Shown: in pieces, positions 2,132 through 49,611 of the stretch | Layout: each line of letters starts with the position of its first letter | Position numbering within the stretch: the stretch's first letter is position 1 | Source of the DNA: Enterobacteria phage JenK1 | Sequence record: NC_029021.1 | DNA length: 60,747 nucleotides | Direction: 5' to 3' (one strand) | Notes under the pieces: model-generated | What the model was told of the DNA's origin: nothing | What the model saw: the letters and a program-made list of their open reading frames with translations, nothing else | Databases searched by the model: none | Position numbers and translations under genes: made by a program

Positions 2132-3658
2132 ATGGCCATTTCTTCGGTTCATCCTAAATATTTACAGTTTAGTGCATTATGGTTGAAGATGCGGGACTGT
2201 TTCCTTGGAGCTGACCACGTTAAGGCTCAAGGTACTTTGTATCTTCCACCGACACCCGCTATGCGTTATGACGGTATGAAACCAGGCGAAGATGGCTATA
2301 TCCGTTACAACGATTATAAAGAACGTGCGGTGTTCCCGGAGTATGTCGCTGATGCGGTAGTTAATCACAGTGGTATGCTTCATAGTAAGTCAGCTATTAT
2401 TCAGTTACCTGCTGCAATGGAACCCCTTCGTCAATCTGCTACCAGCAAGCGCGAAGGTTTAGATCAGCTATTACGCCGCATAAACGAGCTACAGCTACGC
2501 GATGGTCGTCTTGGCCTTCTGTTGGAGCTGCCAGCGGGAAGTACCCGTGACACGCTGCCGTACATCGCAGTATACGAGGCGTTAAGTATACGAAACTGGG
2601 ACGACGGTGAAGATGATCTTGGTTCACTTAACCTTAACCTAGTTGTTCTGGATGAGTCCAAAGAAGTAATGGACAAGACTTCATTTGATTGGACTTATAA
2701 AGTTCAATATCGAGTTCTTGTTCTTGGAAGCGCCAACGTAGATGAACCATCAGATAGCGGTTACGTGTATGGGCAGTATATGACAGAACTGCTTCCTGGT
2801 GAAGATGACGAACCAGAAGAGGTGAGCTCTGACGTTGTAGTCCCTCAGTATAAAGGTACTCCGCTTGAGCAGATACCTTTCGTATTTTGTAACGCTATGG
2901 ACTTAGTCCCAGAACCAGATAAACCACCACTACTCGCATTAGCAAACAGATGTATTTCCATTTATCAGGGTGAAGCTGATTATCGACAGGCTTTGTTTAT
3001 GCAGAGCCAGGATACGCTGGTTGTTCGTGGTGGTATTACGAACAGTGACGCAGTTGATGATAAAGCCCCTGTTCGTGTTGGTGCTGGTGCTCGTATTGAT
3101 GTATCTCCGGACGGTGATGCCAAATACATTGGTACTAATTCACAAGGTTTACCGGAGCAACGTAAAGCACTTGAAGCTGACCATAAAGACGCTCAGACCC
3201 GTTCCGGGCATTTAACCAGTGCAGAAAGTGCTTCTCAAGAATCTGGTGACGCACTGGAAACACGTCTTATCACTAAGACTGCTTCATTAGTTGGTATTGC
3301 TAAGACTGGTGCTGCTGCGTTAGAAAAAATCCTTCGTATTTGTGCTATATGGATGGGATTAAATCCAGACGAAGTTAAAGTTACACCTAACCTTGACTTC
3401 AGCAAAGCTAATATTGAAGGACAGGAATTGGTGCAGGTGCAGACTGCCAAGAATCTTGGTGCTCCGTTATGTGCTGAGTCTATGCACAACTGGTTGCAGG
3501 ATAAGGGAATGACCTCTTTGACGTTTGAAGAGGAGATGAAACGGCTTGAGGAGGAGCGCAAAGAATACCCGTTCCTTTTACCTCAAGTTAAAAACGATCA
3601 GAACCAAATCCAGCAAACAACTGGAGAACAGACGGGGAATGAAAATGCCGCTAAGTAA
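2132..3658 (+). CDS. portal protein (putative)
   Basis: 508-aa ORF immediately after terL and before scaffold and capsid genes; assigned by size and synteny. Confidence 0.6.
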   Translation: MAISSVHPKYLQFSALWLKMRDCFLGADHVKAQGTLYLPPTPAMRYDGMKPGEDGYIRYNDYKERAVFPEYVADAVVNHSGMLHSKSAIIQLPAAMEPLRQSATSKREGLDQLLRRINELQLRDGRLGLLLELPAGSTRDTLPYIAVYEALSIRNWDDGEDDLGSLNLNLVVLDESKEVMDKTSFDWTYKVQYRVLVLGSANVDEPSDSGYVYGQYMTELLPGEDDEPEEVSSDVVVPQYKGTPLEQIPFVFCNAMDLVPEPDKPPLLALANRCISIYQGEADYRQALFMQSQDTLVVRGGITNSDAVDDKAPVRVGAGARIDVSPDGDAKYIGTNSQGLPEQRKALEADHKDAQTRSGHLTSAESASQESGDALETRLITKTASLVGIAKTGAAALEKILRICAIWMGLNPDEVKVTPNLDFSKANIEGQELVQVQTAKNLGAPLCAESMHNWLQDKGMTSLTFEEEMKRLEEERKEYPFLLPQVKNDQNQIQQTTGEQTGNENAAK

Positions 3659-3789: not shown

Positions 3790-4668
3790 ATGAACAAATA
3801 TCACATTCATCTAGCGGTAGCTTATTCCGCTGGCTTCTTCCAGTCCATGCCTCGTTTTGGTGCATTGGAACTTGAATATACTTCTGAAGATGAAATCCCG
3901 GAAAACGCGCGTGAGTATTATTCCCAAGAAGGCGATAAGTGGATCCTCACTGGTGTAAAGGGTGGTGGCAAACAGAATATTGACAGGTTGCAATCTGCAC
4001 TTGAAAAAGAACGCAACGATCATAAAGCGGTCAAGAGTAAGCTAAGTAAGCTGAACGGACGTGATATTGACGAACTCTTGCAGCGCGACGCTGAATATGA
4101 AGAGCTTAAACTGCGTGCGGATAAAGTTGATGATGAAAAGTTGGAGCAAATCATTAACGTACGAATCCGTAACAAGTTGACTCCGCTTGAGCGTGAACGT
4201 GACGAGCTGAAAAACAAACTTTCTACCTATGAGAAGCAAGTAGAAGAGCTGACCACAAAAGAGAAGAACCGCATCGTTAAGACCGCTCTCAGCAAGGCTG
4301 CAATGTCTGCTAAAGTGATCACTGAAGCTATTGACGACGTGGAACTGATTGGCTCTCGTTTGTTTGAGCTCACTGAAGACGGTCAGGTTGTGACACGCGA
4401 CGGTGTGGGTGTAACTCCTGGGATCACCCCAGAAATGTGGTTACAGGACATCCAGGATAAGAAACCTCACTGGTTCCCTGGAAACGTTGGCGGTGGTGCT
4501 GGTGGCTCACGTACCCCTGGCGCTGCTGGTAAGAACCCGTGGAGTGCCGACGGTTGGAACCTTACTGAGCAGGGTAAAATTCTTCGTGAAAATCCTGAAA
4601 AAGCAGGCCGTCTGGCAGCCATGGCTGGCGTGGACTTGAAGCGTCCAGTACGTCCAGTTAAAAAATAA
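3790..4668 (+). CDS. scaffolding protein (putative)
   Basis: K/E-rich coiled-coil-like protein with Gly-rich C-terminal region, between portal and capsid genes. ATG at 3790 has a GGAG RBS; the ORF-track start at 3763 is a GTG just after the terminator. Confidence 0.5.
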   Translation: MNKYHIHLAVAYSAGFFQSMPRFGALELEYTSEDEIPENAREYYSQEGDKWILTGVKGGGKQNIDRLQSALEKERNDHKAVKSKLSKLNGRDIDELLQRDAEYEELKLRADKVDDEKLEQIINVRIRNKLTPLERERDELKNKLSTYEKQVEELTTKEKNRIVKTALSKAAMSAKVITEAIDDVELIGSRLFELTEDGQVVTRDGVGVTPGITPEMWLQDIQDKKPHWFPGNVGGGAGGSRTPGAAGKNPWSADGWNLTEQGKILRENPEKAGRLAAMAGVDLKRPVRPVKK

Positions 4669-4677
4669 TAAAATTTG

Positions 4678-4706
4678 TTGACACTCCCTCCGGTTGGTGT
4701 TAGTTT
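4678..4706 (+). promoter_or_regulatory. candidate sigma70-like promoter in capsid gene leader
   Basis: TTGACA (4678-4683), 17-bp spacer, weak -10 TAGTTT; followed by two overlapping hairpins. Confidence 0.25.
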
Positions 4707-4806
4707 TACATCAACCGGAGCACGGGCTCCGATCAATCAAGGATTATTGGAGCCTCCCACGGCGGTAGAGTTCCAAAGTAAATCGATTAACTTTGCGGAG
4801 ACTACC

Positions 4807-5910
4807 ATGTCTAAAATTCTGTCAGCTCCGATGCTTAATTTGCGAGCTACCAATTCAATTCTTCTGTCTGCTGTTCGTCGTGGTGCGATCACTGAACTTG
4901 CAGATGTTATCGTTCCAGAGATCTTCGTACCGTATGTGCAGAACCGCACAACTGAAAAGTCCCGACTGATTCAGTCTGGTGCTATTGAGATTTCTGAGCG
5001 TCTTAACGCTGCATTGATGGGTGAAGGTACTACCTTTAACCAGCGTTTCTTCAAAGACCTGGATCGTGACGAAGAAAACGTTTCAAGCGCAAGCGATGCA
5101 ACCGATTCTACTCCTGGTGGTATCAAATCTGGGCGTGAAATTCAGATCCGTCTGTCCCGTAACCATTCATGGGGTTCTGCGGACCTGCTGGACAGCCTGA
5201 TCTCCCCTGACCCGCTGGACGCTATCATTAACTTAGTGGCAAGCTACCGTCAGAGCCGTCTGCAACGTGCATTCGTTGCAACTGTAGGTGGTGTGTTCGC
5301 TATGAACGCCGCTGCTCCGGCTGGTTCCGGTGATAAGAAGTCTACTCACGTTCAGAACGATATGACCCACGACATTTCTGGTTCATCCTTCGTTGATGGT
5401 GTGACTAACTTCAACCCGGCTGGTGTTATCCTGGCGGCTGGTACTATGGGTGACTCCCTGAACGACCTGTCTATGATGATGGTTCACAGTGTGGTCTACC
5501 AGCGTATGCAGCTAATGAACCTGATCGACTTCATCCCAGATGCTCGTGCTGAAGTAATGATCCCGACCTACATGGGCCGTGAGGTTATCGTTGACGATAT
5601 GATGCCGCATGAAAGCGGTAAATACGAAACCTGGCTGGTTGGTCGTGGCGCATTCCAGTTAGGTGTTGGTTCACCGAAAGTTCCTGTTGAAACTGAACGT
5701 AAACCTGCATCCTACAAAGGTGGCGGTTCTGAAATCCTGTTCCACCGCTGGGAAAACATCATTCACCCTGTCGGTCACGCATGGGTTGGTACTGCTGCTG
5801 AAGGTGGTCCGGATAACGCCGCTCTGAAAACTGCTACCAACTGGGCTCGTGTATTCCCTGAGCGTAAACAGATTAAGATTGCTCGCCTGATCACTCGCGA
5901 ACACGCTTAA
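4807..5910 (+). CDS. major capsid protein
   Basis: 368 aa from ATG 4807 (ORF-track start 4675 is TTG inside the structured leader); strong host-like codon bias (ctg, cgt, ggt, aac); follows scaffold gene and ends at a terminator. Confidence 0.7.
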   Translation: MSKILSAPMLNLRATNSILLSAVRRGAITELADVIVPEIFVPYVQNRTTEKSRLIQSGAIEISERLNAALMGEGTTFNQRFFKDLDRDEENVSSASDATDSTPGGIKSGREIQIRLSRNHSWGSADLLDSLISPDPLDAIINLVASYRQSRLQRAFVATVGGVFAMNAAAPAGSGDKKSTHVQNDMTHDISGSSFVDGVTNFNPAGVILAAGTMGDSLNDLSMMMVHSVVYQRMQLMNLIDFIPDARAEVMIPTYMGREVIVDDMMPHESGKYETWLVGRGAFQLGVGSPKVPVETERKPASYKGGGSEILFHRWENIIHPVGHAWVGTAAEGGPDNAALKTATNWARVFPERKQIKIARLITREHA

Positions 5911-5930
5911 TGCTTTAGCCATGTAATTAA

Positions 5931-5954
5931 AGGGGCCTATATGGTCCCTTTTTT
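5931..5954 (+). terminator. intrinsic terminator after capsid gene
   Basis: Stem aggggcc / ggtccct with tatat loop, then TTTTTT. Confidence 0.6.
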
Positions 5955-5967
5955 GTTAGGAGGAAAC

Positions 5968-6402
5968 ATGCGTTATCAACGTCATTCAAGACATCGTCGT
6001 TATGTACGTCATGAACGTCACGGTTCAGATGCAACACCTAAAGCAAAGATTAAGACTGTAGGTAAAGTTCAGTATTCAGCTGACGGTGAAAGTGGTTGGC
6101 AAGATACAATCCCTGAAGGTCTTATGAAAGTAAGCACACCACTGACTTTCTACATTCGTGCTAAAGAAGTAGATCCAGAGGATGATGGTTCTTATGTTTA
6201 TAAGTTCCAGATTGCCGCTGGAACTGGCGATGCGTTGTCCCTTCAAAATGCGGGCGTCAACAAAGCAAAAATCTCTGGTACAGCTTCAGAGGATATGCTG
6301 AGTAAGACGTTCAGTGTTAACTGTACCGTTGAAGACAGTTATGGGACAGAAGTTACGGGAACTGCATTAACGCAAGCCTGGTCCGCAGCTCCCGCAGCAT
6401 AA
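5968..6402 (+). CDS. hypothetical protein with Arg/His-rich N-terminus (possible head decoration protein)
   Basis: Strong RBS aggagg 5 nt before ATG 5968 (track start 5941 lies inside the terminator hairpin); N-terminus RYQRHSRHRRYVRHERH followed by a beta-rich region; gene is bracketed by two terminators. Confidence 0.5.
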   Translation: MRYQRHSRHRRYVRHERHGSDATPKAKIKTVGKVQYSADGESGWQDTIPEGLMKVSTPLTFYIRAKEVDPEDDGSYVYKFQIAAGTGDALSLQNAGVNKAKISGTASEDMLSKTFSVNCTVEDSYGTEVTGTALTQAWSAAPAA

Positions 6403-6427
6403 ACGTTAAATTGCTAGATGTTTTAAA

Positions 6428-6462
6428 GGGTGTTACACTTCGCTTGTAACACCTTTTATTTT
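6428..6462 (+). terminator. intrinsic terminator
   Basis: Stem gggtgttaca / tgtaacacc with 7-nt loop, then TTTTATTTT. Confidence 0.65.
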
Positions 6463-6471
6463 GAGGAATGA

Positions 6472-7143
6472 ATGATGAAAGACAAGATCATTGAAGGGCT
6501 TCGTAAACTCAACGTTGAGAATGACAATCATTGGACTGCCGATGGCCTGCCTAAAATTGAAGCATTGAAGTTTACAGTTGGCCCGTCCGTCACGCGAGAA
6601 GATGTCAATTCTGTTGCGCCTGGGTTCACTCGTTCAAATCCTGTAATTGAGGACGTCGAACATGAAGAAAAGCATGACACTTCCTCATTGCAGGAAACCG
6701 AACAGACGGAAATTGTTGCAGATACCGACAATGCACAATATGAGTCCTTATCTAAGGCTGAAGCAGATAAGGAAACTGTTAACGGTAAATCGATTGTCAC
6801 TACGCGAGTAGCTTTAGAAGTCAACGTGAGCGATGCAGTTAAAGCAATGCTCAAAGGTATTCCAGATATTGACTTTGACACTGTTTCTGTGGAAGAACTT
6901 AAAGAATATGAAAAAGTTCTTTCAGAACAAGTCAACGCAGACAACCAGATGTTATCTGCAATGTACGAACTTGTTGAATCTCGTGCTAAATTGTACGCAA
7001 AAGTCAACACTGAAATTGAACGTCGTAAACCTAAGACCGAGCTGGCTCACACGTTAGCATCTTTCCGTGATCAGATGGCACAAATCCCACATGTGGTCAA
7101 TCAGCCTCGTATGGTTGTTCGTAACGGTATCCGCACTCGCTAA
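6472..7143 (+). CDS. hypothetical acidic protein
   Basis: 223-aa ORF with GAGGAA RBS; no recognisable motif. Confidence 0.55.
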   Translation: MMKDKIIEGLRKLNVENDNHWTADGLPKIEALKFTVGPSVTREDVNSVAPGFTRSNPVIEDVEHEEKHDTSSLQETEQTEIVADTDNAQYESLSKAEADKETVNGKSIVTTRVALEVNVSDAVKAMLKGIPDIDFDTVSVEELKEYEKVLSEQVNADNQMLSAMYELVESRAKLYAKVNTEIERRKPKTELAHTLASFRDQMAQIPHVVNQPRMVVRNGIRTR

Positions 7144-7151
7144 GGTGACAT

Positions 7152-7481
7152 ATGGCATTTCGAACAGACAAAAAGTTCTTGTTTCATATGATGCAACGTA
7201 ACAGACGTCGTCGAGATGCCACGTTGAACCCTGTAAGCGGTGTCCTGGGGTGGGTAACGCCGCCCCCGTCGACAGGTGTGGTAGATACCGATTACGTTAC
7301 AACGTGGCAGAATGGACAAACACCTTACGTTGTACAGGTCTTTAAAGATAAAGAATTGGTCTCACAGAATCAGTCTGATTTGCAGACCTTCACAATTAAC
7401 GAATCGTCTGCTGCAAGGTATGACATTAAAATTATAAGTGCAGACGGACAGATTCTTAATGCTACGATAGATATTGCTTGA
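7152..7481 (+). CDS. hypothetical protein (head-tail region)
   Basis: 109-aa ORF in a translationally coupled series between capsid and tail genes. Confidence 0.5.
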   Translation: MAFRTDKKFLFHMMQRNRRRRDATLNPVSGVLGWVTPPPSTGVVDTDYVTTWQNGQTPYVVQVFKDKELVSQNQSDLQTFTINESSAARYDIKIISADGQILNATIDIA

Positions 7482-34358: not shown

Positions 34359-35183
34359 TTACTCTGCAGTTTTCTGAGACGGAATTTCTACGTTAGCGGC
34401 CGCTTGTGCAATATTAGCAGGTACTGGAACGGATACGCGACCAGTAATGCCCATGTATTTTTTCCAGCGAGCGTATTCCGCTTTAACGTTCGCTTCGTTC
34501 AGGCCTTTGTCCAGTGCAACAGGCAGAACGTAGCTGATCGGTGCAGTCTGACCCAGCTCCATGGTGACAGCGTCAAAGATATCCCATGCAGCACGGCACA
34601 GAGTACCGACACCAGGCTTACGAATACCGTTCTGTTCAGGCTCTTTCTTAGCTTCGCGTTCTGCTGCTTTACGAGCACGCTCTTCGTCCTGCAGACGTTT
34701 CTTCTCAGCGCGTTGTGCGTCACGTTGAGCTTTTTCAGCGGCCTTAGTGGCTTCGCGGGCAGCGGATACACGACCTTTAACATCTTTCAGAGTGGATTCA
34801 ATGGAGGAAACCAGATCTTCAGATGCTGCAACGGCAGTTTTCAGCTGATCGTTGTCTTTAACTTTACGTGCTGCCGCTTTAACAGCTTTCAGACCTTCTT
34901 TAGCGGTCTTCAGTTGAGCGGTAACTACGCCTTCAACTGCTTTAACTTCGTCCAGCAATGAACCTTCGTTCAGGGTCGCGAACTGTTCTTTAACAGCGGA
35001 CATAGCACCTTCGATCACATTGTAACCGGCAGTGGCTTCGTTCATTGCGGCGTCAACTTTAGCCTGCAATTCACGTGCTGCTTTTTCTTCAGCTTCACGT
35101 TTTTTCTTTGCTTCAGCTTCTTTTGCTGCTTTCTTTGCTGCTTCTTCTGCTTCCAGTTGTTCTGGAGTTTTCTCTTTAGCCAT
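34359..35183 (-). CDS. highly charged coiled-coil protein, probably abundant
   Basis: 274 aa, K/E/A-rich N-terminus, globular C-terminus; very strong host-like codon bias; strong promoter immediately upstream. Confidence 0.6.
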   Translation of the reverse strand: MAKEKTPEQLEAEEAAKKAAKEAEAKKKREAEEKAARELQAKVDAAMNEATAGYNVIEGAMSAVKEQFATLNEGSLLDEVKAVEGVVTAQLKTAKEGLKAVKAAARKVKDNDQLKTAVAASEDLVSSIESTLKDVKGRVSAAREATKAAEKAQRDAQRAEKKRLQDEERARKAAEREAKKEPEQNGIRKPGVGTLCRAAWDIFDAVTMELGQTAPISYVLPVALDKGLNEANVKAEYARWKKYMGITGRVSVPVPANIAQAAANVEIPSQKTAE

Positions 35184-35238
35184 GATTTAAATCCTCACAG
35201 TGTGGTTATTGGTTGTGAACTACGTTCTAAGTGGTTGC

Positions 35239-35267
35239 ACTATAACCCCTCTAAAAGAACTATGCAA
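35239..35267 (-). promoter_or_regulatory. candidate sigma70 promoter
   Basis: Minus strand TTGCAT - 17 bp - TATAGT, then GAGGA RBS for the 34359-35183 gene. Confidence 0.4.
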
Positions 35268-39039: not shown

Positions 39040-39963
39040 TTACTGTGCAGCGTCATCGCCTTCAGTGGAACGTTTCCACGGTGGAGTCTTGGTCTGAGCT
39101 GCTTTAGCGATATCGTCCTGGACTTCAGGTTCTGCATGGTTAGCAGTACCAGTGTTCTGAGCCTGAGTTTGCGGTTGCTCTGCTCCAGGTTGTACCTGCT
39201 GAGTTGCCCAGTTAGGTTGCTGTGTGGTTTGTTGCTGCGGCTGCTGCGCACCAGTAGCCCACGGTTGAGATTGCGCCGCACTGTTAAAATCAACTGTTCC
39301 AGACTGCTGCTGTTGCTGTACCGGCTGCTGCGGCTGTTGTTGCTGCTGCGGTTGCTGGAACCCCTGAGTCTGAGGTTGTTGCTGCTGTTGCTGCGGCTGC
39401 TGCCCAAATGCGCCCGGGAAACCCTGCTGCTGCGGTTGCTGCTGTTGTTGCTGAGCACCACCGAACGCACCGCCACCAAATGCTGGAGATTGTGCTGCCG
39501 CTGCCGGAGTTGATTTAGGCAGGTTAGCCATATCCGCCTTAGTTGCGTATACAACACCTTCCATGTTATCAATTGCTTGATAAATCTGAGGTTCGTTGTT
39601 TGGCTCATAGCCAGGTTGTTGACGAACTTTCACTTTCAGGTTAAACGGAATACCGTGCAGTTGTTCAGTATCGTTCCAAACTGGAACTTTAACAGCACGG
39701 GACAGCTCTGCCAGTTCTTCCATTGCAATCTGTACAGCGACAGGGTTCGCGTTCTTGACGTTGTAACCGCCAAACATCACACGACCAGCAAAATCACCCT
39801 GCATAATCTTAAACTGAAGATTCAGACGCGCACCGCCTGGAGTTTTAGTCGGTTTGATTTCAGAGTTTACAATCTGAACAACATACCAACCAGCGGGCAT
39901 CAAGCTGTTGTGTTGACGCTCTGCGTGCTGTCCAGCGTTAAATTGCATTCCTAAACCGGCCAT
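39040..39963 (-). CDS. putative ssDNA-binding / annealing protein with Gln-rich linker
   Basis: Folded N-terminal 150 aa, then roughly 100 aa of poly-Q/P low complexity and acidic C-terminus; adjacent to Sak4-like ATPase. Confidence 0.45.
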   Translation of the reverse strand: MAGLGMQFNAGQHAERQHNSLMPAGWYVVQIVNSEIKPTKTPGGARLNLQFKIMQGDFAGRVMFGGYNVKNANPVAVQIAMEELAELSRAVKVPVWNDTEQLHGIPFNLKVKVRQQPGYEPNNEPQIYQAIDNMEGVVYATKADMANLPKSTPAAAAQSPAFGGGAFGGAQQQQQQPQQQGFPGAFGQQPQQQQQQPQTQGFQQPQQQQQPQQPVQQQQQSGTVDFNSAAQSQPWATGAQQPQQQTTQQPNWATQQVQPGAEQPQTQAQNTGTANHAEPEVQDDIAKAAQTKTPPWKRSTEGDDAAQ

Positions 39964-46210: not shown

Positions 46211-46408
46211 TTAAAAGAACGTACCAGTTAGCACATACAGCACAGCGTCGCGCAGTGTTGGCAACAAAGGTGAACAATTAGGAACGCTGTAGAATTTACG
46301 TGATCCCACTTTAACACTTACTATTGTAATAGAACGTTTATTGCGCTCTACTGCGTAGAGACCACCACCAAGACGACGGACTTTATATAGAGGTTGATGC
46401 TTTTGCAT
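46211..46408 (-). CDS. hypothetical protein
   Basis: 65-aa ORF. Confidence 0.35.
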   Translation of the reverse strand: MQKHQPLYKVRRLGGGLYAVERNKRSITIVSVKVGSRKFYSVPNCSPLLPTLRDAVLYVLTGTFF

Positions 46409-46425
46409 GTTTTAACTCCTTTCAT

Positions 46426-46704
46426 TTATTTGCTGACACGCATGGCTCTACCTGTTAAGAAGGTGTATCCACAGTGCCGCATTAAGTCACGTTCTTCTAT
46501 TACACTTCGTAACTGGCGTGACAGCGTTTCATAGTAAGGACGGACTTCGTTCTTACTGATAGCTAAAGCATAGGCGAACAGTTGTTCCGAGTCAATACGA
46601 TTAGACTTGATTCTTTTGATCGCCTGCTCAATTCCTGGGAACTCCTCATCCTGGTATAGAGCACCGTACACAATTTTAATAGCTGCTAGATTGTAACTGG
46701 ACAT
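46426..46704 (-). CDS. hypothetical protein
   Basis: 92-aa ORF with GAGGG RBS. Confidence 0.5.
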   Translation of the reverse strand: MSSYNLAAIKIVYGALYQDEEFPGIEQAIKRIKSNRIDSEQLFAYALAISKNEVRPYYETLSRQLRSVIEERDLMRHCGYTFLTGRAMRVSK

Positions 46705-46739
46705 TTGACCCTCGGACGTAAAATAATTCTTGATACCTA

Positions 46740-46767
46740 TTGCATTCCTAAGGAAATGCTCTATAGT
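46740..46767 (+). promoter_or_regulatory. candidate sigma70 promoter for plus-strand small gene
   Basis: TTGCAT (46740-46745) - 16 bp - TATAGT (46762-46767), then GGAGG RBS. Confidence 0.45.
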
Positions 46768-46802
46768 ATGTATTATACAGTTTGTAAGCGGAGGAACACA
46801 AA

Positions 46803-47033
46803 ATGACTCACCAAGATCTTATAAAAAGAAACATCAGAACTGCAATGAACAAGTCAGAGGAATTCTCACATAACTGTACTGATGGTACTCATAAAATTAG
46901 ATACGAATATATGGGATCCTCAACTGTGGTTAAGTTTGAGAAAGATGAGTATCACGTTGGAGATTTTTCAACACCAGATTACGACGAGATGTTTGAATAC
47001 GTTGTATGTGGGTTCTTAAAATTGCACGAATAA
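46803..47033 (+). CDS. small Cys/His-containing protein on opposite strand to surrounding operon
   Basis: 76-aa ORF with its own promoter, RBS and terminator. Confidence 0.55.
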   Translation: MTHQDLIKRNIRTAMNKSEEFSHNCTDGTHKIRYEYMGSSTVVKFEKDEYHVGDFSTPDYDEMFEYVVCGFLKLHE

Positions 47034-47036
47034 TAT

Positions 47037-47064
47037 AATGGGCGCATATAGCGCCCATTTTTTA
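47037..47064. terminator. intrinsic terminator
   Basis: Perfect 9-bp stem aatgggcgc / gcgcccatt, atata loop, TTTTTT on plus strand. Confidence 0.7.
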
Positions 47065-49611
47065 TAACTTAATAACTTCGTTCATTCTCTCAATATCTAC
47101 CAAATAACACTTCATTCTCGGTGGTGTAAACTCTGCGCCGAAGAAATTTGAAAAGTCCATTGGCCTCATCTCGGTAAGAACTTCCATAGACATCAAACCA
47201 TAGATTGTATTGTCTATGACCTGTAGGATGTTGTCATTTCTTGTCTGTTTAAAAGCCTTGAACTGGCGACATACTGTGCATAAATCACTCCTTGTGACAA
47301 TAAATGCGTCCTTAAACATGGGAAACCGTTTATATACACCAGCTTTAACTTCACCATCCAAGAACTTCTTAATGGAGTTCAGCATTATCTTCTCACGACT
47401 TGTACTGTCCGTAGAACCAATCTGCCCACTGTTACGCTTCTCTAAGAAACGCTCGTTACCCTGATCGATAAATGACTCAGCCCAACGATAATGTTCCATG
47501 GTGACAACAGGACGCTCACTGTTATCTGCAACAGCAAGAAGAGAAGCTATACGCAATACCTTCAACGCCTTCCTTGTGTACATCTGACGAATTACTTCGT
47601 CTTGCACCTGCTCACCATCATTGCCGCTGTTCAGGAACTTCGCAACAATATTATCAAGATTATCAAACGCTTCGTGTACCTCTGCTTCCATTTCAACATA
47701 ACATGGAGCAGTCCCTGACATAATACGCACAGCTTGTTTATAGATAGCTCCAATAGTGCGCAGAATTGCTTCTGGATATTCCAGGAGCATACTTTTATTC
47801 ATCAACGGTCGGTTAGCAGTACATTCCCATGCGATAATGCGGGACATGAAACCACTTGACATCATACGGTCATCTACGTTCCCGTAAAATTCATCTGGTG
47901 TCGTTTCACCTGCAAAACTATACGCCTTGACCTTACCGCCAGCAGTCGTATTATCTTTACTAGAGTGCTTTGAACCACCTGAGAAAGCGTAGAAATGCCC
48001 CTTATCATAAAGGGAAAGCATTTCATCCATAATGTCTTTAGCTTTACCGACTTCCATCTTACCGTTACGGAAAAACGCACCGACTTCAGTCTTATAGTTA
48101 ATGGATGAGCCACAGGACATAACTGACGTATCCATTATGACGTCTTTACGCAATGCAGCATCAGACGCATATGTACTTGTATCCAGGACACGTTCAATAC
48201 CAAATATCTGCTGCCCGTCCTGGCCGCCATAATTGGATACTTGAGAAAGAATAGTTTCAATGTTAGAGCGAAACGCTTCTTTACCAATACCAGAACGTGC
48301 AATCAGTACAAAGTAGTTATTCAAACCACTTCGTGTGACTGTGTTCCACGCCTTACCGCACATACCACTAAATAAAGCAAGAGCAGACAGAATACTAATG
48401 TCTTTAATAGGCAACAAGCTCGCTTTATACATATTACGCGCAACCTCGCCCATAAAGCCCGGAGGCCAAGCCAAACCGTCTGCCTGCTCTTCAGTGTAAT
48501 TGCCATCTGTGGTCAACACTTCTTCAGGTGGGCGTTCTGGTGTAGTTGCTTGACGTAGTTTTTCCGTGCGCTCTATAGCTGCATTAACGTTATTCTGAAC
48601 TATCTGCATAAGTCCCATAGATTTGACATGGGCATCATAGCGATAGTTGCGAATCATTCTATCCAGGTGATACGGGCGTTTGATTTTTTCACCAGGCAGA
48701 CGACGGGAATCATCGTAACGACTACTCATTGGTGAATACATGAACAAACGTCTTACCTGGAAATTGTACTTACTCTTAAAGCAAAGAAAGTCAATTAATG
48801 CAAACTCTGCTTCGGACTGAGAAGGGAAACAACGTTCACCGATAGAAGTATCAACTTCTTCAGCTCTCCAACGACCTTCCCATAGTTGCTTAAACAATGT
48901 TCCGTTTTCTTGTTCACACAACTGAATATAGACATCCTGGTCTTCCATTGCATATGGGTCGTTACTAAAATCTTCTTCAGTAAGTTCCAGCATTTGGAAG
49001 CCATCAGACTCATTAATCTCACTCATCTCAGACATAAGTTGATGAATGAGATTAGCGATATACCCTTCGCTTTCACTGCCTGGAGCACCAGACACAGTAC
49101 GCGGAGTAATATCCCAGTGATCTCCTGTACAGATAATAAAGCGATACTGTGAATACACTTCCACACCATCGCGGCGCTTACCAGCCTGAGGTATGGAATA
49201 AATCCATGTGTGCAACCCATCACCACTTCTGGAAATTTCCGTATAGCTATGGAACGATTCAACAATCTTCTTATATCGCTCACCAGCAACTTTCTTTTCC
49301 ATTTCAGACATGGTATCTTTAATGTCCATGTCTATACAACAGAACGGGTCACTTGGAAGTAGATAGAAACCTAAACGCAAGTTATGGCCGATCTCGTTAT
49401 AATAACGAACGCAGCGTTCAGCATCTTCAAAAGACATAAGTAAATGCAGGTTAGACGGTTTCTTATCATTGCCGTCTTTACGAAGTGGGACCATATCCCC
49501 TAAATCATCGTCCCATACATAAGGTTGTTTTTCTGATGATGTACCTGGATGGAAACCGCAGACAGCCCACTGTTCGTATTGTTTAATTTCTTGAGGAAAA
49601 AGTTCCAGCAT
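47062..49611 (-). CDS. DNA primase-polymerase (archaeo-eukaryotic primase-like) replication protein
   Basis: 849 aa; N-terminal AEP-like motifs CIDMDIKD (DxD) and SGDGLHTWIY (sGxGxH); large C-terminal domain unassigned. Confidence 0.55.
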   Translation of the reverse strand: MLELFPQEIKQYEQWAVCGFHPGTSSEKQPYVWDDDLGDMVPLRKDGNDKKPSNLHLLMSFEDAERCVRYYNEIGHNLRLGFYLLPSDPFCCIDMDIKDTMSEMEKKVAGERYKKIVESFHSYTEISRSGDGLHTWIYSIPQAGKRRDGVEVYSQYRFIICTGDHWDITPRTVSGAPGSESEGYIANLIHQLMSEMSEINESDGFQMLELTEEDFSNDPYAMEDQDVYIQLCEQENGTLFKQLWEGRWRAEEVDTSIGERCFPSQSEAEFALIDFLCFKSKYNFQVRRLFMYSPMSSRYDDSRRLPGEKIKRPYHLDRMIRNYRYDAHVKSMGLMQIVQNNVNAAIERTEKLRQATTPERPPEEVLTTDGNYTEEQADGLAWPPGFMGEVARNMYKASLLPIKDISILSALALFSGMCGKAWNTVTRSGLNNYFVLIARSGIGKEAFRSNIETILSQVSNYGGQDGQQIFGIERVLDTSTYASDAALRKDVIMDTSVMSCGSSINYKTEVGAFFRNGKMEVGKAKDIMDEMLSLYDKGHFYAFSGGSKHSSKDNTTAGGKVKAYSFAGETTPDEFYGNVDDRMMSSGFMSRIIAWECTANRPLMNKSMLLEYPEAILRTIGAIYKQAVRIMSGTAPCYVEMEAEVHEAFDNLDNIVAKFLNSGNDGEQVQDEVIRQMYTRKALKVLRIASLLAVADNSERPVVTMEHYRWAESFIDQGNERFLEKRNSGQIGSTDSTSREKIMLNSIKKFLDGEVKAGVYKRFPMFKDAFIVTRSDLCTVCRQFKAFKQTRNDNILQVIDNTIYGLMSMEVLTEMRPMDFSNFFGAEFTPPRMKCYLVDIERMNEVIKL

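Follow-up and report, generated by a model that had tools for sequence, protein, structure and literature searches.

The window analysed here is the whole 60,747-nucleotide (nt) stretch of Enterobacteria phage JenK1 DNA held in sequence record NC_029021.1. Our subject is a small gene within it, which encodes a protein of 76 amino acids (aa) on the plus strand and runs against the direction of its neighbours, next to the end of the gene for an AEP primase/DUF3987 helicase. By sequence comparison the phage is a 9g-like coliphage of the genus Nonagvirus (Queuovirinae); across positions 46400-47400 it is 99.6% identical to Escherichia phage vB_EcoS_HdK1 (hereafter HdK1) and 91-95% identical to 9g, JenP1, JenP2, BRET, SE1, Bas19, Bas20 and others, all of which are Nonagvirus. 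Members of this genus are siphoviruses of ~60 kb, the DNA of which contains 7-deazaguanine (archaeosine) (PMC8594841). The genes of the window point rightward from 1 up to ~25.8 kb, leftward between ~26.1 and ~55.6 kb and rightward over the remainder, and in the HdK1 annotation the small gene is the sole plus-strand gene among ~50 leftward genes. The locus comprises the following elements, the sister clade being that of certain Klebsiella phages and Escherichia phage Ec1-ASingh:

46740-46745, plus strand: -35-like hexamer TTGCAT of the putative rightward promoter, in the block CCTATTGCA, which does not vary among 12 Nonagvirus genomes or in the Klebsiella/Ec1-ASingh clade
46762-46767, plus strand: putative -10 hexamer TATAGT of the rightward promoter, after a 16-nt spacer; the sister clade has TATAAT or TATACT there
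46790-46794, plus strand: Shine-Dalgarno sequence GGAGG, 8 nt before the ATG at 46803
46803-47033, plus strand: small open reading frame (ORF) of 76 aa, phrog_17131 (9g_00024, HdK1rev_00081), intact and with a PHROG match; stop codon at 47031-47033
47037-47059, both strands: hairpin AATGGGCGC-ATATA-GCGCCCATT with a stem of 9 base pairs (bp), between the convergent stop codons; predicted bidirectional intrinsic terminator
47060-47065, plus strand: T-run (T6) of the rightward terminator, 5-10 long among Nonagvirus genomes
47062-49611, minus strand: AEP primase/DUF3987 helicase gene, 849 aa, convergent with the small gene and ending 2 nt from the hairpin; stop codon at 47062-47064

A preliminary description of this DNA had proposed a self-contained gene with a TTGCAT-16-TATAGT promoter, a GGAGG sequence, a 76-aa ORF and a perfect 9-bp-stem hairpin, and every one of these elements is indeed present. 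The gene is already known from GenBank, where all Nonagvirus records list its product as hypothetical (9g_00024, HdK1rev_00081, BRET_58 and others); what is new is the boundary between transcription units at which it appears to lie, a second clade of the family together with a usable structural model, and the slot that it occupies across several siphovirus genera. The match to the phrog_17131 profile covers the full length of the protein (residues 1-76 of 76, expect value (E) 2e-55), and 9g gp24, HdK1rev_00081 and the hypothetical proteins of JenP1 and JenP2 belong to the same family and share its genomic position without any difference. Each of the 12 distinct Nonagvirus genomes carries the gene. 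Because its ORF is intact in 11 of the 12, because the ratio of nonsynonymous to synonymous change (dN/dS, Nei-Gojobori) is 0.154 overall and 0.10 over codons 32-76 (neighbours, 0.05-0.09), because diversity is in excess at the third codon position (0.063, 0.071 and 0.182 at positions 1, 2 and 3), and because the GC (guanine plus cytosine) skew flips sign across the ORF, as expected for plus-strand coding among minus-strand genes, we conclude that this is a real conserved gene under purifying selection. Its promoter, Shine-Dalgarno sequence and terminator are likewise kept in all 12 genomes and remain recognisable in the sister clade, where the protein is only ~33% identical, so that the claim of a self-contained gene stands.

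Synonymous diversity is unevenly distributed along the ORF, being fourfold lower in codons 1-20 (46803-46862; 0.08) than in codons 32-76 (0.32). The former codons belong to a near-invariant block at ~46650-46860, which is not conserved in the sister clade, and their low synonymous diversity could reflect either an overlapping DNA or RNA signal, for example the upstream region of a leftward promoter, or a recombination sweep.

The protein is probably dispensable for plaque formation, unless the frameshifts concerned are sequencing errors, because frameshifted alleles occur in the viable BASEL phage FritzHoffmann (Bas20), where a 1-nt G insertion (G3 to G4) disrupts the gene (2904-3135 of locus L002), and in database cluster P0005, which has a separate frameshift in a T-run. 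Protein clusters P0005, P0006 and P0007 all represent alleles frameshifted or truncated at homopolymer runs. The records of Bas19 and Bas20 annotate the region as two short ORFs in other frames, the 76-aa frame being intact in Bas19. Neither of these alternatives was retained: in five genomes stop codons interrupt the equivalent of the one, 46882-47019, and the other, equivalent to 46730-46873, begins upstream of the promoter.

The non-coding sequence upstream of the gene is more conserved than the surrounding coding sequence. The intergenic region 46705-46802 (98 nt) varies at 3 sites among the 12 Nonagvirus genomes and has a nucleotide diversity of 0.008, compared with 0.08-0.23 at third codon positions of the flanking genes, and the non-coding blocks that are invariant across both clades comprise CCTATTGCA with the -35, TATA[G/A/C]T at the -10, ATTATACA, and ACAAAATGA with the start codon. 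A related Shine-Dalgarno context is found in Seuratvirus (GGAGGATTACAAAATG) and in the sister clade (GGGGATTACAAAATG). Rightward transcription is predicted from standard spacing to start near 46774. TTGCAT matches the consensus TTGACA at 3 of 6 positions, and the site is absent from the list returned by a consensus scan; the hexamers alone are within chance and no evidence of a promoter, the support for which comes from position and conservation.

Other candidate signals in this region were considered and set aside. An imperfect inverted repeat in the promoter spacer, GCATTCC-TAA-GGAAATGC (46742-46759, without strand), is invariant in Nonagvirus, but as an operator it is unsupported, being single-copy in the window and limited to that genus, with no counterpart in the sister clade. 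A putative activator box, TATTGCAW, shows no enrichment (11 copies, 7.6 expected). The 11-mer TTGCATTCCTA, formed by the -35 and the beginning of the spacer, has three exact plus-strand copies at 39943, 46740 and 57371, two of them inside coding sequence, a recurrence that is probably due to chance, since 56 11-mers occur three or more times here as against 9-27 in shuffled sequences. No Rfam family matched the small-gene region at gathering score, the sub-threshold matches (E 0.2-1) being driven by the terminator.

The hairpin folds with a predicted energy of -16.1 kcal/mol (z -5.3) on the plus strand and -16.8 kcal/mol (z -3.8) on the minus strand, and the records of HdK1 and HdSG1 mark a leftward terminator here, that of SP8 a terminator on each strand. 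Its core GGGCGC...GCGCCC is invariant across clades, and in the sister clade the flanks are symmetric (A4 and T5). The stability of the hairpin, its GC-rich stem, the U-rich tracts on both strands and its place between convergent genes are the properties of a bidirectional intrinsic terminator, as which folding predicts it to act. Since the hairpin is confined to the gap between the two stop codons, convergent RNAs ending there would have nothing but the hairpin in common, and any antisense overlap with the primase coding sequence would therefore need read-through. The arrangement looks as though it were built to prevent convergent interference with the primase, not to exploit it. Because several further leftward terminators are annotated within the leftward block of HdK1, and because the hairpin would also serve the primase, the block is not one operon, and the small gene lies at the junction of two leftward units. 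The gene had previously been placed on the opposite strand inside a leftward operon; the orientation is correct, but 'inside' is imprecise, the hairpin following the primase stop codon and the gene standing between two units.

Facing the rightward promoter is a second candidate, directed leftward:

46772-46777, minus strand: perfect TATAAT, candidate -10 of the leftward promoter, in the block ATTATACA, which reads TGTATAAT on the minus strand; invariant in both clades
46796-46801, minus strand: candidate -35 TTGTGT, replaced by TTGTAA in the sister clade; it is separated from the TATAAT of this strand by 18 nt and abuts the start codon of the small gene

In the sister clade the facing -10 elements form TATAAT-AGC-ATTATA, that is, two perfect hexamers 3 bp apart. 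The leftward promoter, for which standard spacing predicts a start near 46765, would restart transcription after the terminator and feed the gene at 46426-46704 and those beyond. The two polymerases would melt the same ~13 bp (~46763-46776), with footprints overlapping by ~50 bp, so that the two promoters would be mutually exclusive, though their transcripts would diverge. Another minus-strand promoter-like site, at 46933-46906, was rejected, its -10 being lost in SE1 and PD328.

The unit that this promoter would serve begins with two small genes:

46426-46704, minus strand: phrog_17339, with which the downstream leftward unit opens and which carries the label 'protease'; its ATG is preceded by GAGGG (46713-46709) at a distance of 4 nt
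46211-46408, minus strand: second gene of that unit, 65 aa, N4 gp8-like, with a match to PF25713 (N4_GP8) at E 1.4e-17

In the product of the first gene no protease domain was found, scans of Pfam and NCBIfam giving nothing beyond chance-level hits; the label 'protease' or 'putative cysteine protease', which goes back to a calpain note in 9g and was passed on to phrog_17339, is unsupported. The second gene is annotated as a hypothetical protein in all Nonagvirus records examined, and the family to which its product belongs bears the name 'bacteriophage N4 DNA replication inhibitor'. The target of N4 gp8 is the delta subunit of the clamp loader, and it is likely, judging from these matches, that the small gene neighbours at least one host-takeover gene (46211-46408).

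A weak tblastn match (31% identity, E 9e-3) led to Escherichia phage Ec1-ASingh, in which a 97-aa plus-strand ORF occupies the same position in the order 'protease-like' (minus), small gene (plus), hairpin, primase (minus). Klebsiella phages K9PH25C2 and Kpn2-P2 have a layout identical to that of Ec1-ASingh and encode homologues ~33% identical to the protein of the window, and on sequence grounds these 97-aa Klebsiella/Ec1-ASingh proteins extend the phrog_17131 family to a second clade. Searches with the Ec1-ASingh sequence and then with a joint profile returned ~30 more clusters, on phage-sized contigs of up to ~60 kb, and no further clade. More distant phages hold other genes at this place. 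In the Seuratvirus KurtStettler (Bas22) a small reverse gene directly after the primase (3385-3609 of locus L017) encodes an unrelated 74-aa protein with a weak match to the AP2 domain (E 1.3e-3, below the Pfam cut-off); the gene shows the GGAGGATTACAAAATG context, and the stop codons are separated by a GC hairpin, AAAGGGCC-TTTC-GGCCCTTT. Likewise, the reverse gene of Providencia phage PSTCR7 (Craquatrovirus), at 3391-3570 of locus L018, encodes 59 aa and is accompanied by TTGCAC-17-TATATT, GGAGATTACAATG and a hairpin. Between the Seuratvirus and PSTCR7 slot genes and the small gene no kinship is detectable (hhalign probability at most 0.5). Sequence comparison thus makes a reverse small gene beside the primase stop codon a conserved positional feature with a varying occupant, the slot being older than the gene; a slot with a shared, putatively bidirectional terminator is found in Nonagvirus, Seuratvirus, the Klebsiella-phage clade and Craquatrovirus, and facing -10 elements in two of these clades.

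The protein of the window has a mass of 9.0 kDa and is acidic (isoelectric point (pI) 5.4; 4.2 in the sister clade). Its Cys and His residues, to which the preliminary description had drawn attention, are present (2 Cys and 5 His), but the implied metal binding is not supported, and a zinc-binding site is excluded: there are only two Cys, Cys25, His23 and His30 are already replaced within Nonagvirus, in the SP8/BRET/JenP2 allele (LFE--QGSS), and in a 24-sequence alignment of the two clades no Cys or His column is invariant, the only invariant residues being M1, M15, G28, I32, D59, Y60 and F64. With the two-clade alignment AlphaFold2 gives a model with a mean local confidence (pLDDT) of 82.7 and a predicted template-modelling score (pTM) of 0.67, comprising a helix at 3-14, five strands and a helix at 60-75, so that the predicted fold is an acidic alpha1-beta5-alpha2 sandwich; a model from the Nonagvirus-only alignment of five sequences was discarded (pLDDT 56). 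Foldseek searches with the model gave nothing below E 0.4 against the PDB and a sole match against BFVD, a 97-aa protein (template-modelling (TM) score 0.86) that is apparently a member of the same family. A resemblance to SH2/Spt6 may explain an old note in 9g, 'similar with transcription elongation factors'.

Searches by sequence were no more productive: scans of Pfam (no hit at E<0.1) and NCBIfam were empty and a sequence-profile search of the PDB gave no match. An exhaustive hidden Markov model (HMM) search with the Nonagvirus profile, which covered 1.84 billion representative proteins, returned the family itself and FG-GAP-like repeat proteins only. The latter hits (P0008-P0022) are long bacterial proteins in which GGWHIGDFNGDGKDDIFRY resembles EYHVGDFSTPDYDEMFEY at residues 49-66, the common motif being HxGDF...D(D/E)xFxY. 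The match of the motif is striking; kinship with FG-GAP or VCBS-like repeats was nevertheless judged to be chance, the score being the sum of 5-6 repeats, the segment being predicted as a beta-hairpin plus helix, and a Pfam hit being lacking. A HicA or dsRBD-like alpha-beta3-alpha fold was also rejected, with no Pfam hit at E<0.1, dsRBD hits in Foldseek at E ~1, and Ser or Tyr in place of His30 in relatives. Likeness to the T7 Gp1.2 dGTPase inhibitor, to N4 gp8 and to anti-CRISPRs is at noise level and without sequence relationship. The protein appears to carry no catalytic, metal-binding or DNA-binding signature.

Taken together, these observations lead us to regard as rather probable the reading in which the small gene constitutes an autonomous rightward unit at the junction of two leftward units, with its terminator shared with the primase, its promoter interlocked with the leftward promoter and its product an accessory protein. 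The rightward unit would consist of a sigma-70-type promoter, a strong Shine-Dalgarno sequence, the 76-aa ORF and the intrinsic terminator, and would belong to the early/replication arm of the genome. Transcripts of the primase unit and of the small gene would both end at the hairpin, which would insulate the convergent units and keep them from interfering, and the leftward promoter TTGTGT-18-TATAAT would then restart transcription into the cluster containing the N4 gp8-like protein, the two promoters presumably not being occupied at the same time. Our best guess is that the product is a dispensable accessory factor that would bind a protein of the host or of the phage early in infection.

Several points weigh against this reading. 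The frameshifts on which dispensability depends sit in homopolymer runs, where sequencing error is possible. Both promoters are mediocre, with 8/12 (rightward) and 9/12 (leftward) consensus matches, and in a weight-matrix scan they rank 94 and 58, respectively, of 2055 sites in the window. The very low diversity at 46650-46860 could be partly the outcome of a recombination sweep rather than of constraint, and ATTATACA and ACAAAATG could be conserved instead for rightward initiation and translation. A literature search found no Nonagvirus transcriptome, nor any mention of the function of the small gene.

Transcription itself might be what matters, the locus being a conserved insulator or switch and the ORF a passenger, such that rightward firing would occlude the leftward promoter, rightward polymerases together with the hairpin would block read-through from the primase, and the relative timing of replication and host takeover would be set. 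This explanation draws on the far stronger conservation of the promoter region than of the ORF, on the low synonymous diversity of the first 20 codons, on the facing -10 elements conserved across clades (both perfect TATAAT in the sister clade) and on KurtStettler and PSTCR7, which keep the slot, with a TTGCA-type -35, GGAG-ATTACA-ATG and a GC hairpin, around non-homologous ORFs. Against it, the protein itself is under purifying selection (dN/dS 0.10-0.15), has a strong Shine-Dalgarno sequence and keeps its fold-defining residues across two clades, and the leftward promoter is not recognisable in Seuratvirus; on this balance we think the explanation unlikely. A related view, which we hold to be doubtful, is that the slot would be an insulator combined with a switch between mutually exclusive promoters, by which the host-takeover and replication blocks would be timed relative to each other, and that the small protein would be its clade-specific effector or autoregulator.

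Morons are autonomous promoter-gene-terminator cassettes between conserved genes, described for lambdoid phages, and the possibility that the small gene is one had been raised from the start. Like them it is a small gene, slightly AT-richer than its surroundings (GC 0.34-0.36 against 0.41-0.43 in the neighbours), which is opposed to its neighbours, has its own predicted promoter and terminator and appears dispensable, and different genera hold different genes in the slot. This much of the proposal survives. A classical moron, however, that is, an accessory gene acquired independently between pre-existing genes and having a host-range or anti-defence function, should be sporadic, whereas this gene is fixed in the genus and predates the separation of the sister clade; it differs only modestly from its neighbours in GC content, and the promoter, interlocked with that of the neighbour, and the terminator are common to the flanking units, not brought in with the gene. 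Lambdoid morons differ also in their setting, since the present phage lacks an integrase and has been called virulent or pseudolysogenic. The PADLOC anti-phage-defence models gave no hit at E<=1 for either clade. Bas19 shows some sensitivity to EcoKI and Bas20 does not (PMC8594841). The sensitive Bas19 carries the intact gene and Bas20 the frameshifted one, so that nothing in the BASEL phenotypes points to an anti-restriction role. We therefore consider a classical moron quite improbable.

That convergent transcription or antisense RNA down-regulates the primase, as had also been suggested, is very improbable in spite of the convergent orientation and of a T-run the variable length of which (5-10) could tune read-through, since a stable stem followed by T6 lies before the primase coding sequence, which terminated RNAs would miss, and the same hairpin is predicted to stop the primase transcripts. 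In all, the finding is a real but ordinary conserved accessory gene and probably not a regulator of the primase.

Some further features of the window touch on these elements. The exact hexamer pair TTGCAT/TATAGT occurs twice in the window, as against 0.03 expected, and the second occurrence, which the preliminary description had located correctly, has a 17-nt spacer:

35239-35267, minus strand: TTGCAT-17-TATAGT, 55 nt upstream of the ATG of the gene at 34359-35183 (minus strand); also present in HdK1

That gene encodes 274 aa (phrog_11298), for which searches of Pfam, NCBIfam and the PDB gave no relative, and the unit 34359-35267 on the minus strand also looks monocistronic, a terminator being annotated just downstream in HdK1. 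The primase-helicase, a single 849-aa ORF in the window, is represented by four annotated ORFs in the near-identical HdK1 (4663-7229 of locus L001) and by two in SE1, and these splits are probably assembly errors of the records concerned.

A further observation concerns an over-represented 8-mer, TGTGGTYA (TRACCACA on the other strand), one copy of which lies within the small ORF:

46925-46932, plus strand: TGTGGTYA, kept in 12 of 12 genomes, the only change being T/C at Y

The window contains 55 copies against 4.6 +/- 2.1 expected (examples at 1432, 4250, 8270, 18385, 27597, 38058, 46925, 50183 and 60546). The most abundant 8-mer of the window is TGTGGTCA, and single-base variants of TGTGGTYA are rare. 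The copies are divided 35 and 20 between the strands; they fall in every codon phase and run both with and against the genes that contain them. Their spacing is unusually even, with a coefficient of variation of 0.61 against 0.98 for random placement (0 of 2000 simulations being as even), 0.35-0.39 per strand, and a mean gap of 1.1 kb. Four sites that were checked are kept in all aligned Nonagvirus genomes, with T/C at Y as the sole substitution, and the motif looks enriched also in short loci of Seuratvirus, Craquatrovirus and the Klebsiella clade, albeit with only 3-5 copies in each. A literature search on the motif found nothing. The T7-type priming site TGGTC is contained in TGTGGTYA, and one idea is that the copies might be preferred lagging-strand priming sites for the shared AEP primase-helicase or else sites for a phage DNA-binding protein.

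In practical terms the slot offers a convenient, apparently dispensable and self-contained site for the engineering of BASEL-type phages, and the locus a simple system for testing promoter exclusivity. Both of its regulatory boundaries have counterparts elsewhere. Bidirectional intrinsic terminators between convergent genes are a known arrangement, and the present hairpin is like them in that one GC-rich structure separates two stop codons and either RNA strand has its U-rich tract; it differs in that the leftward tail of Nonagvirus (AUUAUAUUAUU) is weaker than the rightward one (U6). Similarly, bioA/bioB and tetA/tetR are overlapping divergent (bidirectional) bacterial promoters, in which opposite-strand sigma-70-type promoters have overlapping polymerase footprints as proposed here, and bidirectional promoters with symmetric -10 elements were reportedly described by Warman et al. 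in 2021. The candidate promoters of the phage differ from these known ones in that their -10 elements face each other 3-4 bp apart, with predicted starts separated by only ~9 bp.

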